DNA from: Chloroflexota bacterium
Lineage (GTDB): Bacteria > Chloroflexota > UBA11872 > VXOZ01
Reading direction: 5' to 3'
Assembly (NCBI GenBank): GCA_963663275.1
Contig: OY760183.1
Span: 1,024,001 to 1,088,000 of the forward strand
Length of the DNA stretch: 64,000 bases
Each line of letters opens with the position of its first letter. Positions within the stretch are counted from its first letter, which is position 1. The position numbers and the translations under genes are program-made. The notes beneath the pieces were generated by a model. It saw only the letters and a program-made list of their open reading frames with translations. It was not told the DNA's origin and ran no database searches. Below are positions 18,557 to 61,848 of this stretch, piece by piece.

Positions 18557-18807
18557 TCATGTTGTCGCATTAACTCGATGAGAATGAAGGTTACGCTCGT
18601 TTCTCCGGTGGCGCAGGTTCGCGCGGGAGGTGCGCATAAGCTGCGTCTTCCGTAGGGTCAATCCATTTCGTTAGCACTCTTTTGGTCCGGCGGGGGACAA
18701 GCCCCCGCGCTACGTTAATGCGACAGTATTGGGGACAAGCCCCCGCGCTACGTTAATGCGACAGTATTGGGGACAAGCCCCCGCGCTACGTTAATGCGAC
18801 AACATTA
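18557..18807. mobile_element. IS4-ended MITE with three stacked right ends, inserted in a GTAGCGCGGGGGCTTGTCCCCCGCC REP
   Basis: Left TCATGTTGTCGCATTAA; right TTAATGCGACAGTATTG at 18715 and 18753 and TTAATGCGACAACATTA at 18791; flanks GGGCTTGACC / GGGCTTGTCC. Confidence 0.85.
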
Positions 18808-37617: not shown

Positions 37618-38766
37618 CTACGGCACGGCGATGCGCGGCAGATCCGGGTTGATGCGGCTCACAATCTCGTAATTGATCGTCCCCACGTGGGCGGCCAGGC
37701 GCTCCGCCGGCATCCCGGGTCCCAGCAGCGTCACCTCATCACCCACCCGCGCACCAGAAACGTCGGTCACGTCGAGAATGGTCATGTTCATCATCACGCG
37801 CCCGACAACGGCTGCCAGCTTGCCGCGAATAACGACCTCCCCCAGATTCGACAGCTTGCGGTCGTAGCCGTCGGCATACCCCACCGGAATCACCGCCAGG
37901 CGCGAGTCGCGCCGCAAGCGATGGGTGCGGCCGTAGCCCACGGTTTCGCCGCGCGCCGCCTGCTGCACATGCACGATGCGCGTCTTCCAGCACAGCGCCG
38001 GTCGGAGCGTGAGCGGACGCGCAGCGCGTTCCGTCATGGCGATCTGCGTATCCAGCGACGGCCACAAGCCGTAGAGACCGATGCCGATGCGCGCCAACGT
38101 GCCGTGTGCGGCCGGCGCCACCATGGCCGCGGCGCTCGCCGCCATGTGTTGGTAGGGCACGTGGAGGCCGGCGCGTGCCAAGCCCGCCTGAACCTCCGCG
38201 AAACGGCTCATCTGCAATTGGAGATAGGAGTCATCCGCCGTATCTTCCGCCGTGGCAAAGTGGGTGTAAATGCCCTCGACTTCAAGGTTCGGCATGGCCC
38301 GCAACCGGCGGACGAAGGCGAGCGCCTGGTCGAACGCCACGCCCAGGCGGAACGTGCCGGTCTCGATCTTCACGTGCACGGCGGCGGTCGTGTTGTGCCG
38401 CGCCGCCGCCTGCGCCAGCGCCTCGGCGGACTCCTGATCGAAGACCACCTGCCGGAACCCATGGCGCGCGACGTCGGCGGCCCGGCCCGGCGGCGTGTAC
38501 CCCATGATCAGCACCGGCAGCGGGCGGGCGTCCTGGGTAACGGTCAGGCCGCCGTGGTGGAGCGCCAAGGCTTCGTCAAGGGTATCGACCCCCAGCCAAT
38601 CAACGTGATCCGCGATGCCGCGGGCGACGACCCTCAACCCATGACCGTAGGCGTTGGCCTTGACCACGGCCAACAGCGCGGCGTCGGGGCTGAGCCGCTC
38701 CCTGAAGGCGGCGACATTGTGCCGCAAGGCGGCGCGGCTGATTTCGATCCAGGAAAGGGGTTCCAT
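37618..38766 (-). CDS. alr: Alanine racemase
   Basis: AVVKANAYGHG, HVKIETG, THFA, GYADG, GRVMMN, GTINYEI. Confidence 0.96.
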   Translation of the reverse strand: MEPLSWIEISRAALRHNVAAFRERLSPDAALLAVVKANAYGHGLRVVARGIADHVDWLGVDTLDEALALHHGGLTVTQDARPLPVLIMGYTPPGRAADVARHGFRQVVFDQESAEALAQAAARHNTTAAVHVKIETGTFRLGVAFDQALAFVRRLRAMPNLEVEGIYTHFATAEDTADDSYLQLQMSRFAEVQAGLARAGLHVPYQHMAASAAAMVAPAAHGTLARIGIGLYGLWPSLDTQIAMTERAARPLTLRPALCWKTRIVHVQQAARGETVGYGRTHRLRRDSRLAVIPVGYADGYDRKLSNLGEVVIRGKLAAVVGRVMMNMTILDVTDVSGARVGDEVTLLGPGMPAERLAAHVGTINYEIVSRINPDLPRIAVP

Positions 38767-38909
38767 GATTTAATCGTTCGGGCCCGGTTGGAGGGGCACG
38801 AGCCTGTAACGGCTGGAGGCTCCATGACCCGCATTAACGCGGATTCTTGACCACAATGGTGTCGCGCTAACGTAGCGCGGAGGCAAATCGAAAGTGATGT
38901 CGCTCTACC

Positions 38910-39161
38910 GTAGCGCGGGGGCTTGTCCCCCGCCTCTGGAAATTCGGTTGCGCTGGCATGGCGGGAACCGGCGCAGGTTGAAAACCTACGCTACCGGAGG
39001 GAACCGCTTAGCTCAATTACATCCCGTAGCGCGGGGGCTTGTCCCCCGCCTTTGAAAACTCGATTGCGCCGGTGTGACGGGAACCCGCGCAGGTTGAAAA
39101 CCCACGCTACCGGAGGGAACCGCTTAGCTCGATCACATCCCGTAGCGCGGGGGCTTGTCCC
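38910..39161. repeat. Three 116-bp tandem REP-doublet units; the third is interrupted by IS4 and continues at 40356-40443
   Basis: GTAG at 38910, 39026 and 39142 with conserved spacers. Confidence 0.88.
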
Positions 39162-40355
39162 CAATGCTGTCGCATTAACCGCTGAAGCGGAGTGCGCGGG
39201 GCAAGGAAGCGGCAAGCGTTCGCAGCCAAGAGACGCGAGTGCTGCTAGCTGGACGTAGTTCCTCTAAGAGCTGTGCGAGCACGGCCACGATGCTGGCGAC
39301 CACCAAGGTGAGCCAGACGGCGGCACGGCTGTATCCAATGGGGCGGATTGCGCCCAACACATGCTTCAGCCAGCGAAAGAACAACTCGATCTGCCAGCGC
39401 TTGCGGTAGAGCCACACCACCTCTGGAGCGCTCAGGTCGTGACGGTCGGTGATGAAGTGGTGCGTTTTCCCCTGCGCCGTACGGCTGACCACCAGGCGCA
39501 TCTCTGCTAAGACCGCGCCGTTGCGGTTGTTGGCGCTGCCCAGCACGATCACCGCATCCCGCACCACCACGTCTCCTGCCGGCGTGCGCGCGCCGGTCAC
39601 GGCACGCTCGCGCACCACGCAGTAGGCAGCCTGCGGGTGCAGGCGCGTCACGAAGTGCACACCTGCCTCCCGCATCTGCGCAAAGACCCGATGCGCGTAG
39701 TAGCCCAAGTCTAGCAAGAGCGTCCAGCCCTGCCACCGCGCCAGACCCCAACGCTTGAACGCCGTCACGTCATTCGCGTCCGCCAACGTCACCTGTAACC
39801 GCGTCGGCACCTGTGTGTCCACGGCATATGCCATCTGCAGCCGTACTCCCGCCTCATGTCCTTGGTGCACGCTCCACGGACTACACGCCGCGCTCAGCGC
39901 CAGAAAACTGCCGTCCACCGCCACCACCCGCCGTACGTGCGCCGGCCCACGTGCTTGCACCTGCCGCGCCAACACCTCCCACGCCGCCGTAAAACACGCC
40001 AACGGCCGCGTCTGGGATGAACGTGCCAACTGACTGTAACTTATGCCCGACGCTAAACCCAACCGCCGTCGCCACACCACATCACCCATCTGCAGCCCAT
40101 GGCTTTGCCGCAGGCTCCCACTCCCACTCAGCACGTGTCCAAGCAGCATCCCCACATGCGCTCGCACCGAAAAATGCTTGCGATAGCGATCCGCTCCCCT
40201 CACCCGTGCTGCCGCCGTCAGCGCCGGCTCCAACTCACGCCATAGCCGCCGTCCTACTCCTACCGTCTGTGCTACCATTAGCCAGGGCTCCTTTGTAAGA
40301 TATATCGCTCATTACCTTACTAAAGTAGCCCCTTCACTTTAATGCGACAACATTG
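39162..40355 (-). mobile_element. Complete IS4-family element (1194 bp)
   Basis: TIRs CAATGCTGTCGCATTAA / TTAATGCGACAACATTG (16/17); 11-bp TSD GGGCTTGTCCC at 39151-39161 and 40356-40366. Confidence 0.95.
39175..40278 (-). CDS. IS4 family DDE transposase
   Basis: VAVDGS, LLDLGY, YRKRWQIELFFRWLK (YREK motif); stop codon lies inside the TIR. Confidence 0.95.
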   Translation of the reverse strand: MVAQTVGVGRRLWRELEPALTAAARVRGADRYRKHFSVRAHVGMLLGHVLSGSGSLRQSHGLQMGDVVWRRRLGLASGISYSQLARSSQTRPLACFTAAWEVLARQVQARGPAHVRRVVAVDGSFLALSAACSPWSVHQGHEAGVRLQMAYAVDTQVPTRLQVTLADANDVTAFKRWGLARWQGWTLLLDLGYYAHRVFAQMREAGVHFVTRLHPQAAYCVVRERAVTGARTPAGDVVVRDAVIVLGSANNRNGAVLAEMRLVVSRTAQGKTHHFITDRHDLSAPEVVWLYRKRWQIELFFRWLKHVLGAIRPIGYSRAAVWLTLVVASIVAVLAQLLEELRPASSTRVSWLRTLAASLPRALRFSG

Positions 40356-40468
40356 GGGCTTGTCCCCCGCCTTTGGGAACTCGATTGCGCTGGCATGGCG
40401 GGAACCCGCGCAGGTTGAAAACCTACGCTACCGGAGGGAACCGGCTGGAACATTGTATCGAAAATACC

Positions 40469-40835
40469 GGTAGCGCAGGTTTGTAACCTGCGTCTTCCGT
40501 AGGGTCAATGCATTTCGTTCTCGCTCTTGTTCCGGCGGGTGACAAGCCCCCGCGCTACGAGTAGTGAACGGGCGGGTGACAAGCCCCCGCGCTACGGGTA
40601 GTGAACGGGCGGGTGACAAGCCCCCGCGCTACGGGTAGTGAACGAGCGGGTGACAAGCCCCCGCGCTACGGGTAGTGAACGGACGAGGGACAGGCCCCCG
40701 CGCTACGGGTAGTGAACGGGTGGGGGACAAGCCCCCGCGCTATGGGTAGTGAACGGGCGGAGGACAAGCCCCCACGCTATGGGAAGTGAACGGGCGGGTG
40801 ACAAGCCCCCGCGCTACGTTAATGCGACAGCATTG
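40469..40835. mobile_element. IS4-ended MITE copy with its internal REP amplified to eight 37-bp units
   Basis: GACAAGCCCCCGCGCTACGGGTAGTGAACGG units every 37 bp (40541 to 40800), then TTAATGCGACAGCATTG + GGGCTTGTCCC. Confidence 0.82.
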
Positions 40836-40905
40836 GGGCTTGTCCCCCCGCTGCTTGGCGTCGAAGGCAAAGGCCGTCTTGGGCAGAGATTTAGGCAAAA
40901 CTCCC

Positions 40906-41694
40906 CTAGGCCCGCACGCCGCTGAGGACCACCTCATGGCGGGTCAGGCGCAAGTCGTCGCCCACCTGTTGCGGCGCCAGGCCGGCCAGATCGCCATCGA
41001 CCGCTTCCCAGAGCATCGTCCTGACGATCTCGCGGTTCTCATCGGTCGTGTTCGCGGTTTCCAGCCACTCGCTGGCCAGCACCTCCCGCTGCAAGAGCCG
41101 GGTCTCAGCCACGGGGCAGCCCACGTCCGCCATCATCCGGCGCAACTGGCTTGGGCTGAAGGCTTGCACGTGGGAGTGCCCGCGCAGGCGTTCCATGCGG
41201 TTGAAGTAGGCCGCCTTCCCGGCATCCTCCGGCATCCCGAACTCGCCGATGACCAGCCGTCCGCCGGGCGCCAGCACCCGCGCCATCTCTTGCAGGGCGG
41301 GCACGGCGTGGGTGAAGTGATGAACGCTGAAGCGGCAGGTAACGATGCTAAACAGCGCGTCCGGGAATGGCAGGCGGGTGGCGTCGGCGGCGGCCAGGGC
41401 GACCCGCTCTCCACTCCGGCCTTTGCCATTGGTCTCTTCTTGTTCAGCCGCGCGGGCGAGCATGGCGGCGGTGAAATCCACGCCGGTAACGCAGCCGCCG
41501 TCCGTGATCGCCTCCGCCAGGGCAAACGCCACCAGCCCCGTGCCGGTGGCCACGTCCAGCGCCTGCGCCCCGGGGCCCGGCGCGGCCATTTCAACCATCG
41601 CCTCAACCGTATCGCCCTGCCCGCCCGTATAGGTAGCCGCCCGCTCCGTAAAATGCTGCCGCACGTCCTGATCCGACGGCGCTTGTTCGCTCAT
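40906..41694 (-). CDS. Class I SAM-dependent methyltransferase (UbiE-like)
   Basis: ALDVATGTG, VTGVDF, ADATRLPFPD, RVLAPGGRL. Confidence 0.9.
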   Translation of the reverse strand: MSEQAPSDQDVRQHFTERAATYTGGQGDTVEAMVEMAAPGPGAQALDVATGTGLVAFALAEAITDGGCVTGVDFTAAMLARAAEQEETNGKGRSGERVALAAADATRLPFPDALFSIVTCRFSVHHFTHAVPALQEMARVLAPGGRLVIGEFGMPEDAGKAAYFNRMERLRGHSHVQAFSPSQLRRMMADVGCPVAETRLLQREVLASEWLETANTTDENREIVRTMLWEAVDGDLAGLAPQQVGDDLRLTRHEVVLSGVRA

Positions 41695-57399: not shown

Positions 57400-57600
57400 A
57401 AGCGCTATCGATCGGCGGTCGTGTGAGTGAGGGAGACGCGCGCGGCCAGGCCCGCAGGACACCAACTCCTAATTCTAGCCCCGCCACAAGCCGCAACGCA
57501 AGCGCCCCCGCCCATGAACCGGAGAAACCAATTCTCCGGCAGTCCCACGCGCCGCTATCGACAGATAGCGTAGGTTTGTAACCTGCGCCGCCGGGAGCCG

Positions 57601-58153
57601 GTAGCGCGGGGGCTTGTCCCCCGCCTGGCGCCGACAAGGGTAGGCAATCTGTAGCCGGCCTGAGGTGTCATTCCGAACGGAGCGCAGCGGAGAGAGGAAT
57701 CTAAGGCGTATCCCTGCCATTTCATCGTTCCTAGATTCCTCGCTCCGCTCGGAATGACACTTGTATACCCCTGTCAGCCCGCCTGGTTCCAACGGGCCAC
57801 GTTCCCCACGCCGGCGCAAAGCCTGCCCCGCACGCTAAACGGGGCCGGAAAGCCTACCCTCGTTTGGCGCAGGTCTGCAACCTGGGACGCCAAGAGCACG
57901 TAGCGCGGGGGCTAGTCCCCCGCCTGGCGCTGACAAAGGTAGGCAATCTATATTCGGCCTGAGGTGTCATTCCGAACGGAGCGCAGCGGAGAGAGGAATC
58001 TAAGGCGTATCCCTGCCATTTCATCGTTCCTAGATTCCTCGCTCCGCTCGGAATGACACTTGTATACCCCTGTCAGCCCGCCTGGTTCCAACGGGCCACG
58101 TTCCCCACGCCGGCGCAAAGCCTGCCCCGCACGCTAAACGGGGCCGGAAAGCC
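57601..58153. repeat. Near-identical tandem duplication (period 299 bp) of a composite REP block
   Basis: 57601-57854 repeated at 57900-58153, including a GTCATTCCGA...TCGGAATGAC doublet. Confidence 0.9.
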
Positions 58154-58161
58154 GACACTCT

Positions 58162-58272
58162 GGTAGCGCAGGTTTGAAACCTGCGTCTTCCGTAGGGTCA
58201 ATCCATTCCTTTAGCATTTATCTTGTTCCGGCGGGGGACAAGCCCCCGCGCTACGTAAATGCGTCAGTATTG
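58162..58272. mobile_element. Partial IS4-ended MITE (right half)
   Basis: Same internal sequence as 18606-18731; degenerate end TAAATGCGTCAGTATTG. Confidence 0.72.
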
Positions 58273-61674: not shown

Positions 61675-61818
61675 CATCGTTGTCGCATTGAACGCAATGA
61701 GAATGAAGCCTACGCTCGCTTCTCCCGTAGTGCAGGTTTGTAACCTGCGACTTACGCAAGGTCAATCCAGTCCGTTCTTGTTTACCTTGCTCCGGCGGGG
61801 GACAAGCCCCCGCGCTAC
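61675..61818. mobile_element. Partial IS4-ended MITE (left end present)
   Basis: CATCGTTGTCGCATTGA then ATGAGAATGAAG..TACGCTCG and two REPs, colinear with the 18557 copy. Confidence 0.72.
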
Positions 61819-61848
61819 GCAAACGCGGCGGCGTTGCGCGCAGGCCCA

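Follow-up and report, generated by a model that had tools for sequence, protein, structure and literature searches.

The window, by which we mean the whole stretch of 64,000 nucleotides analyzed here, contains an intact insertion sequence (IS) that splits a palindromic REP within a tandem array, together with transposase-free elements that have the same ends as the IS (Table 1).

Table 1. Coordinates of the repeats and mobile elements in the window.
Feature	Position	Strand	Remarks
Complete MITE-1	18557..18731	+	Inserted in REP-A; followed by two extra 38-bp units of half REP-A plus right end, to 18807
BIME-like tandem array	38908..39162	+	116-bp units of forward REP-A and inverted REP-B; the third unit was hit by the IS
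Left half of split REP-A	39142..39161	+	GTAGCGCGG and the duplication GGGCTTGTCCC at 39151-39161
Intact IS4-family IS	39162..40355	-	1194 bp; 17-bp terminal inverted repeats at 39162-39178 and 40339-40355
Transposase gene	39175..40278	-	Single ORF, 367 aa, no frameshift
Right part of split REP-A	40356..40371	+	Second copy of the 11-bp duplication (40356-40366), then the REP-A right end CCGCC
MITE-1 remnant without left end	40469..40835	+	REP-B, linker, inverted REP-A array (40534-40818), right end (40819-40835)
GGGCTTGTCCC adjoining the MITE right end	40836..40846	+	Target duplication or REP half from an older MITE insertion
MITE-1 remnant without left end	58178..58272	+	Right two-thirds; right end decayed
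Old MITE-1	61675..61836	+	162 bp; both ends present but decayed; beside a GGGTGAGGGGG-type repeat

The inverted ends of the IS are CAATGCTGTCGCATTAA and TTAATGCGACAACATTG, and four copies of the element with 99.3-100% identity were found in the 3.53-Mb genome. The transposase matched DDE_Tnp_1 of Pfam (E 7.5e-23) and the IS4-family model NF033592 of NCBIfam with 155.9 bits (cut-off 115), while all other IS-family models remained below their cut-offs. De Palmenaer et al. (2008; PMC2266710) define the family by a D(60-110)D(100-150)E spacing and a Y(2)R(3)E(6)K motif. The motif was found as YRKRWQIELFFRWLK at residues 291-305 (Y291-R294-E298-K305), and the candidate residues D122 and D190, chosen by eye from local motifs, lie 68 residues apart, with 108 from D190 to E298. 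By its DDE profile, YREK motif, single ORF, and duplication of approximately one helical turn, the element is an IS4-family IS. Table 1 of the same source (PMC2266710) lists for the subgroup 'IS4' ends of the form -AATR--------WTW, a direct repeat of 10-13 bp, and a size of 1400-1650 bp; our element matches this signature in its ends (CAATG........TTA) and in its 11-bp repeat, but at 1194 bp it is shorter than the size range of the subgroup. IS relatives in other Chloroflexota (37-57% identity) have the same ends and 9-11-bp duplications. Within the window the end motif occurs eight times with two or fewer mismatches, versus 0.01 expected from shuffles.

The target of the IS, REP-A, is a GTAG-tagged palindrome with 292 exact and approximately 530 near copies in the genome, and the cores of these 530 copies account for about 0.2% of it. 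The genome also encodes a RAYT, a 163-aa ORF matching Y1_Tnp with 43.7 bits (cut-off 23), which is flanked by REP-A in forward orientation upstream and inverted orientation downstream; a high-copy GTAG-tagged palindrome and a RAYT between inverted REP-A copies constitute a REP/RAYT system. The window IS has GGGCTTGTCCC on both sides, and joining its flanks rebuilt REP-A as GTAGCGCGGGGGCTTGTCCCCCGCC, which is intact at 38910 and 39026, within the 116-bp tandem units of the adjacent array (period 116, 2.2 copies, 91% matches). In all four genomic IS copies, which lie within REP-A in both orientations, the break is at the palindrome centre and 11 bp are duplicated. The preliminary description of an intact IS4 inside a REP with an 11-bp duplication was thus borne out by both the family profile and every genomic copy, and the reconstruction of the REP from the flanks with a constant break point in four of four copies corresponds to the 'type 1 association' of Tobes & Pareja (2006).

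Because the element ends extend the palindrome, the length of the duplication could not be fixed from the REP sites alone, and duplications of 5, 7 or 9 bp with longer ends (CCCCAATG...) were compatible with all of these sites. The length of 11 bp was set by MITE copies at other sites, where CCCCTTGTGGG, GGGTGAGGGGG, and GGGCTCATCCC are each duplicated; we rejected the shorter lengths because the 11 bp duplicated at these non-REP sites lack an initial GGG. In all, the 11-bp cut falls at the centre of three different palindromes. Genome-wide, 127 of 193 element ends (three or fewer mismatches) adjoin REP-A halves, and perfect 11-bp duplications were found at 35 of 63 end pairs.

The transposase-free element, MITE-1, is a 162/177-bp element whose 17-bp ends are identical to those of the IS or differ by one to three mismatches, the left end of young copies being identical to the IS left end. 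Its body consists of one REP-B hairpin and one inverted REP-A, the latter being the IS target itself, and its right end always adjoins the GTAGCGC side of the carried REP, never the REP centre. A second transposase-free family, MITE-2, has the same ends and carries REP-C in its body. With inverted ends matching those of the IS, target duplications, no coding capacity, and many copies, these elements are MITEs. Recent bursts of MITE-1 are seen as eight identical 162-bp copies and clusters of six and three copies at ≥99% identity, and many other copies have decayed (45 clusters at 97%). At the insertion sites of 50 end-paired MITE-1 copies, REP-A was rebuilt in 32 (orientation 19:13) and a REP-like sequence in five more; strict REP-A reconstruction failed in 13 of the 50, several of which are 12-bp duplications, REP variants or arrays.

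That a transposase-free element has the ends of the IS, as initially reported, was confirmed by the 17-bp ends and 11-bp duplications common to both. The accompanying count of four copies, three of them partial, holds for the window in number, except that two copies, not one, run from end to end, and genome-wide there are 63 full-length copies, 160-188 bp long. The tandem array within 18557..18807 has a period of 38, 2.9 copies, and 100% matches, and the ends at this locus were scored as nested. The remnant next to the IS gave BLAST matches at MITE query positions 81-158 and 133-175, and its inverted REP-A array comprises 7.7 units of 37 bp. We did not adopt a reading of 39162-40835 as one composite transposon with inverted ends and GGGCTTGTCCC on both sides, which would look the same as two separate insertions because every REP insertion yields the same duplication.

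The REP-A carried by MITE-1 serves as a landing site, in agreement with the preliminary description. Eleven element ends at nine loci adjoin MITE-internal REP halves, and the occupants are one IS (3018017-3019210), one MITE, and 38-bp arrays; REP-C of MITE-2 is likewise occupied, by a 101-bp array at 2896484-2896790. Such tandem arrays of half-REP plus end could have grown by replication slippage after one nested event. Since the element ends begin with C and finish with G, the insertion junctions stay palindromic, retaining G4-N5-C4 palindromes that can be read directly, and one target could therefore become three. We found one back-to-back element pair with an 11-bp spacer, and its flanks are not those expected if a junction had simply been hit a second time.

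Empty sites were found in congeners. At the site of the young MITE at 1489181-1489342, the flanking genes abut in G006, G009, and G012, with neither REP nor MITE between them, and BLAST coordinates indicate that they abut likewise in G001; the closest congener, G011, is rearranged at this site. At the site of the window IS, G006 and G009 have one intact REP-A between the same genes. For another young MITE, at 3119180, only the right-hand gene has orthologues (in five congeners), and the left flank is a repeat. Seven public read runs, some of them labelled sponge metagenome, contain part of window positions 38000-41500; these were searched as Logan contigs, which are broken at repeats, and as none spans an IS-free or MITE-free site they are uninformative on insertion polymorphism.

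Taking the anatomy of the elements and their sites together, we consider it probable that the IS4-family transposase targets the apex of REP-A and also moves the REP-carrying MITEs in trans, which would make it, the RAYT aside, a minor route of REP spread. The DDE transposase of the 1194-bp IS would bind the 17-bp terminal inverted repeats and insert in either orientation, presumably by cut-and-paste chemistry, with cuts staggered by 11 bp about the apex of a GC-rich palindrome that it probably recognizes, with the G5-CTTGT-C5 stem-loop of the RAYT-associated REP-A of the host as the preferred site above all. The same ends bound both MITE families, whose bodies are pieces of REP clusters (REP-B plus inverted REP-A in MITE-1 and REP-C in MITE-2), and both would most likely owe their mobility to this transposase acting in trans. 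With the intact REP-A in its body, every MITE-1 copy would make up for the target that it destroyed, and such copies are themselves struck anew; loss of DNA between the direct repeats of nested copies would then give rise to the tandem arrays of half-REP plus end. Insertions outside REPs, about a quarter of the copies, would seed REPs at new loci and thus provide the minor second route of REP spread beside the RAYT. The carried REP would be a by-product of the birth of a MITE from an IS living in REP clusters, not a selected device.

Two other accounts of what moves the MITEs were weighed against trans-mobilization by the IS transposase. One is that the RAYT, an HUH enzyme, moves MITE-1 as a REPIN-like doublet and that the shared 17-bp ends are incidental scars of IS insertion. 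The body of MITE-1 is indeed an inverted pair of GTAG-tagged REPs, as in a REPIN or BIME unit, and a RAYT is present in the genome, but the perfect 11-bp duplications start exactly at the inverted ends, whereas HUH/Y1 transposition produces, to our knowledge, no such target duplications; the ends are moreover conserved in the IS and its distant relatives, and the right end is no insertion scar because it always lies at the GTAGCGC side of the carried REP. This account is therefore hardly credible. The other takes the MITEs for fossil relics of an earlier or another IS that had the same ends, and the resident IS for a newcomer with the same target that does not move them. In favor of such an origin, exact element ends were found in 12 of 17 congeners, being absent from the other five, while the transposase was found in two of the 17, and many MITE copies have decayed. 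However, the eight identical copies and the clusters at ≥99% lie in the one genome with four intact IS copies; this genome (G000), with its intact transposase genes, also has the most exact ends (69, with 28 in G012 and 27 in G011, where the transposase is broken), and the young MITEs have the left end of the IS. We thus regard a purely fossil origin as very improbable. In G012, a 60-contig assembly, no transposase match was found despite the 28 exact ends, and another transposase source, or past activity, could conceivably account for MITEs.

If the IS transposase moves the MITEs, as we prefer, the question of how much it contributes to REP abundance follows. The preliminary description took the DDE transposase for a spreader of REP doublets, its MITEs for a means of seeding new target sites, and the whole for a self-reinforcing loop, a reading that our counts uphold only in part. 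Only 74 of the approximately 530 REP-A copies sit in MITEs (~14%), leaving ~86% outside, and the REP family has its own RAYT, so the DDE route is a side route and not the main engine. Each on-target event costs one REP and supplies another; therefore only off-target insertions, which are the minority, add REP loci. Occupancy was ~12% for carried and ~11% for free REP-A in a rough count based on our own motif thresholds and no full annotation. A selected feed-forward loop, in which the carried landing pad raises the transposition success of IS and MITEs and DDE-driven spread is a major cause of REP abundance, would accord with the presence of REP palindromes in both MITE families, with the hits that carried REPs do receive, and with the palindromes kept at both junctions, by which targets could multiply. 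It is nevertheless distinctly unlikely, given the small share of REP-A inside MITEs, the similar occupancy of free and carried REPs in our count, and the misfit of the sole back-to-back pair; furthermore, the RAYT is flanked by inverted REP-A and is present in 16 of 17 congeners, versus two for the transposase. It is possible, though doubtful, that REPs have two engines, the RAYT and a DDE transposase that moves REP-doublet MITEs, renews or increases its own supply of safe landing sites, and drives the growth of REP/BIME arrays. If this were true, amplification would take place in REP clusters, where genes are few, and would burden the host little, part of the REP expansion credited to RAYTs in some phyla would be DDE-driven, and 'target-carrying MITEs' would represent a distinct strategy.

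Each part of the system is a known kind of element. The novelty claimed in the preliminary description does not extend to REP targeting by an IS4-family element (ISRm22), GC-hairpin targeting (IS186) or cassettes moved in trans (MIC231); the combination of a hairpin-seeking IS with target-carrying MITEs does appear new, in that a literature search of partial coverage found neither this combination nor any MITE carrying a REP targeted by its own IS. According to Tobes & Pareja (2006; PMC1525189), all 10 copies of the IS4-family element ISRm22 split the REP/RIME of Sinorhizobium meliloti; like the IS described here, ISRm22 breaks a palindromic REP at its axis, leaves flanks from which the REP can be rebuilt, and sits mostly in REP clusters. 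Its direct repeats are 6 bp as compared with 11 bp here, and the host phylum and the REP differ; that source (PMC1525189) contains no mention of 'MITE' or 'non-autonomous' and describes no REP-carrying partner of ISRm22. IS1397 and ISKpn1 (IS3) as well as IS621, ISPpu9, ISPpu10, and ISPa11 (IS110) also insert specifically into REPs (PMC3184786, PMC1525189), using other transposase families and chemistries, and the IS110 elements make no duplications; the available sections of these two sources describe no REP-carrying MITE partner for them.

IS186 of Escherichia coli, also of the IS4 family, resembles our IS in targeting a GC-rich palindrome of G-run, spacer, and C-run and in making a duplication of approximately one helical turn; in MG1655 the sequence flanking IS186A is GGATCACTCC, itself part of GGCGGGGATCACTCCCCGCC. 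Its ends differ from those of our IS, and the transposase aligned with InsL of IS186 at 30% identity over 106 aa of the C-terminal part, around the YREK region (E 2e-6), a relation that seems too distant to assign our element to the IS186/IS421 group. We know of no MITE family that carries the target of IS186. IS231, an IS4-family element of a different subgroup with ends that begin with CAT, has the consensus target GGG-N5-CCC and a hot spot in the ends of Tn4430. Target specificity of IS231 is noted in PMC2266710, and in the Bacillus cereus group it moves in trans the transposase-less MIC231 cassettes, which are bounded by IS ends (PMC6199540), a precedent for the mobilization proposed here. 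These cassettes are 0.7-3 kb long and carry genes, not REPs or the IS target, whereas the MITEs described here carry REPs.

REPs are usually viewed as the cargo of RAYTs, and REP-seeking ISs as mere users of REPs. In one closed genome we found a RAYT, its REPs, a REP-seeking DDE-type IS, and two REP-bodied MITE families, all in recent and readable form, which offers a clean system for studying how an IS4-family transposase recognizes a palindrome apex, while nesting followed by deletion would be a simple origin for some tandem arrays of half-REP plus end. The effect on REP number is modest here, and current views are refined, not overturned. REPIN/RAYT systems and BIMEs (Nunvar 2010, PMC2817692; Bertels & Rainey 2011, PMC3116915; Di Nocera 2013, PMC3733652) are reported to include GTAG REPs in Chloroflexi. 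Similarly, REP-A and REP-B are GTAG-tagged, occur in hundreds of copies in alternating orientation, and are accompanied by a single RAYT. Unlike in those systems, ~14% of REP-A is enclosed here by DDE-type inverted ends with 11-bp duplications and hence has a way of moving without the RAYT: REPs can travel on a DDE element, and such an element can carry its own preferred site.

The insertion sequence (IS) belongs to the IS4 family, as the preliminary description had proposed. Its transposase matched Pfam DDE_Tnp_1 (E 7.5e-23) and the NCBIfam IS4-family model NF033592 (155.9 bits, cut-off 115), and the remaining IS-family models all stayed under their cut-offs. The protein contains YRKRWQIELFFRWLK, an instance of the Y(2)R(3)E(6)K signature by which PMC2266710 defines the family, and candidate Asp residues at 122 and 190, chosen by eye, show family-typical spacings. 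The IS4 subgroup is characterized in the pertinent entry of that source by -AATR--------WTW ends, direct repeats of 10-13 bp, and a size of 1400-1650 bp; the ends of the IS match this signature, although its length falls under the range. Four copies (99.3-100% identity) are present in the closed 3.53-Mb genome (64% G+C).

GGGCTTGTCCC is present on both sides of the window IS. Joining its flanks rebuilds the GTAG-type palindromic repeat REP-A (GTAGCGCGGGGGCTTGTCCCCCGCC), and two 116-bp tandem units ahead of the IS hold intact REP-A as empty-site paralogues within the window. All four genomic copies split REP-A at the identical point, in both orientations, with the 11-bp duplications GGGCTTGTCCC, GGGACAAGCCC (twice), and GGGCTCGTCCC/GGGACGAGCCC. 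Because the ends open with C and close with G, and because they sit in a palindrome, REP sites alone would also permit a 5-9-bp duplication with longer ends. This reading is excluded by copies of the transposase-free partner (MITE) at non-REP sites, which duplicate CCCCTTGTGGG, GGGTGAGGGGG, and GGGCTCATCCC (11 bp each; one MITE copy has 12 bp). The proposed 11-bp duplication within a REP is thus settled.

Coordinates and composition of the elements and repeat structures (G000, source genome)
Feature	Coordinates	Composition
IS	window 39162-40355	1194 bp; 17-bp inverted ends CAATGCTGTCGCATTAA and TTAATGCGACAACATTG
Transposase ORF of the IS		minus strand; single ORF, 367 aa
IS copy within REP-A of an old MITE	3018017-3019210	right end of that MITE 21 bp further on
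IS copy in an upstream REP-A of the RAYT gene	381634-382827	~130 bp from the RAYT start codon
Complete MITE inside another MITE	212.4-212.7 kb	162 bp
Stack of elements	1536 kb	
Short repeated units	window 18693-18801 and six other places	GGGACAAGCCC CCGCGCTACG + right end; 38-bp spacing
MITE-2 type copy	G000:1297267-1297441	
MITE-2 units	G000:2896484-2896790	three 101-bp units: left end + 65 bp + half REP-C
Tandem array in a MITE remnant	window 40534-40818	37-bp unit (7.7 units, 91% matches): inverted REP-A + 12-base linker
Long repeat	window 57566-58185	299-bp unit (2.1 units): REP-B + REP-A + spacer, ending in REP-B of the truncated MITE at 58178
Facing element ends	G000:39909-39945 (outside the window)	only GGG between; MITE body recognizable on neither side
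Mixed cluster	G000:495356-495888	partial MITE-1, 11-bp spacer, MITE-2, REP-A, young MITE-1 side by side in 530 bp

The four MITE copies recorded in the window (18557, 40469, 58162, and 61675) are all real, but two, not three, are partial, lacking the left end; those at 18557 and 61675 have both ends. Four is also the count for the window only: BLAST with window 18557-18731 gave 408 matches in the genome, 63 of them full-length (mostly 162 bp, n = 38, or 175-178 bp, n = 20). This family, MITE-1, consists of the left end, ~34 bp, REP-B, ~45 bp, inverted REP-A, 1 base, and the right end. MITE-2 (~175 bp, ~10 full-length copies) shares the 17-bp ends and has a central REP-C. The 37-bp array of the window has grown within a MITE remnant, between body and right end, and the 299-bp repeat suggests that recombination at REP-B removed the left part of the MITE at 58178. 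In the mixed cluster, several hits have accumulated within a single REP cluster.

At up to 3 mismatches the genome has 193 element ends: 127 adjoin a REP-A half, the other 66 do not, and 74 of the 193 are right ends of MITE-1 copies whose carried REP-A is intact. They form 63 end pairs (4 IS, 50 MITE-1, 9 MITE-2 or other), with a perfect 11-bp duplication in 35 and one mismatch in 4 more. The rebuilt target was REP-A (up to 3 mismatches) for 4/4 IS, 32/50 MITE-1, and 4/9 MITE-2 or other pairs. The remaining MITE-1 targets were REP-like in 5 and not in 13, some of the latter being artefacts of the strict model (12-bp duplication, REP variant, array). Among the true off-target sites are GGGTGAGGGGG-type repeats (4 cases) and a further palindrome whose apex is CTTGT.

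Judging from homologous IS4-family elements that have been studied, the transposase would bind the 17-bp ends, excise the element, and attach it to the two target strands at an 11-bp stagger. Three unrelated palindromes (REP-A, REP-C, and a GGGCGCC-stem element) are each cut around their apex, and orientation relative to the target REP shows no clear bias (19:13 for MITE-1). Both observations would fit a transposase that recognizes a palindrome by its symmetry or in extruded form, not by the GTAG tail. The MITE bodies resemble fragments captured from a REP cluster, as expected of an IS residing there.

The claim that the MITE carries its own landing pad was borne out: 11 element ends at 9 loci, including one IS, adjoin MITE-internal REP-A halves. 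MITE-2 nests in its own palindrome too, as seen in its 101-bp units. The 38-bp units could have arisen by nested same-orientation insertion followed by deletion between direct copies of left end, body, and half REP, and slippage may have added further units. By rough count, carried and free REP-A are occupied at about equal rates (10 events vs 74 intact, 12%; ~58 vs ~456, 11%).

Recent activity is visible in eight identical MITE-1 copies, each inserted in REP-A and flanked by a perfect duplication (12 bp long in one copy); further groups of 6 and 3 are at least 99% identical. The gene pair flanking the 2.1-kb repeat block of the window lies 16-50 bp apart in most congeners, and in G006 and G009 a single intact REP-A separates it. 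At a young MITE (1489181-1489342), the flanking genes abut without REP or MITE in G006, G009, and G012, and by BLAST coordinates also in G001. At this locus (L047 620-940; G000:1489100-1489420), a ~24-bp stretch of the gene junction, ttcatc[c/a]cagcggctccatct, is directly duplicated around the REP-plus-MITE insert; the genes overlap in congeners, and copying of the junction seems to have kept both intact. In public runs, contigs at the repeats were short pieces and none bridged an empty site. Part of window 38000-41500 is present in seven runs, four of them labelled sponge metagenome; two of them differ at several positions of the flanking genes and may thus contain related strains.

Among the 17 genomes of the genus, two have the transposase, as four intact copies in the source genome and as broken pieces (77-79% identity) in G011; a search of 24 further genomes from the class found none. 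In other species of the genus, MITE-like elements share these ends, likewise carry REP-A, and target it. Exact ends number 69 in the source genome, 28 in G012, 27 in G011, 12 in G014, 11 in G006, at most 6 in each of seven others, and 0 in five, a pattern rather than a test because the genomes are kin. G012, with many ends and no transposase match in its 60-contig assembly, cuts both ways on the IS-MITE link. Many of its contigs (among them C1:114-155, C14:88-129, and C33:113-154) have a REP-A-plus-end unit ~110 bases from their start, which suggests breaks in the assembly at a young repeat carrying these ends.

REP-A occurs in 292 exact copies (530 at up to 3 mismatches), REP-B (GTAGCGCAGGTTTGAAACCTGCG) in 369, and REP-C, a perfect 28-base GTAG-type palindrome, in 107 exact copies; the reversed-genome control gave 0 copies of REP-A and of REP-B. 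The single Y1_Tnp match (43.7 bits, cut-off 23) is an ORF of 163 aa, preceded by forward REP-A and followed by inverted REP-A. A RAYT gene between inverted REPs is the classic arrangement, and REP-A is a true RAYT-type REP. Inverted REP-A arrays flank this only RAYT gene in the extracted locus L001 (1-2400; G000:381550-383950), and 16/17 genomes of the genus have Y1_Tnp matches.

The observation of a REP-targeting IS with a REP-carrying MITE is confirmed. The idea of a self-reinforcing engine of REP spread was overstated, because on-target insertion swaps one REP for another; a RAYT is present, and 86% of REP-A lie outside MITEs. The main value of the case is that palindrome targeting and REP hitch-hiking can be studied here in a clean natural setting.

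A literature search of partial coverage, without supplements, found no MITE with nested hits that carries the REP its own transposase targets. In one Rubrobacteraceae MAG and in other Chloroflexota MAGs, IS relatives sharing 37-57% protein identity have the same ends and 9-11-bp duplications, several in other GC-rich palindromes. GTAG REPs are on record for Chloroflexi (PMC3733652), and according to PMC6199540 the IS4-family transposase of IS231 has been shown to move end-bounded MIC231 cassettes in trans. IS186 of E. coli K-12 (IS4 family) sits in a G4-N6-C4 palindrome, a similar GC palindrome target, although the transposases align over 106 aa only (30% identity). REP-targeting IS are well described, and ISRm22, likewise of the IS4 family, splits REPs at the palindrome axis in 10/10 copies according to the account in PMC1525189.
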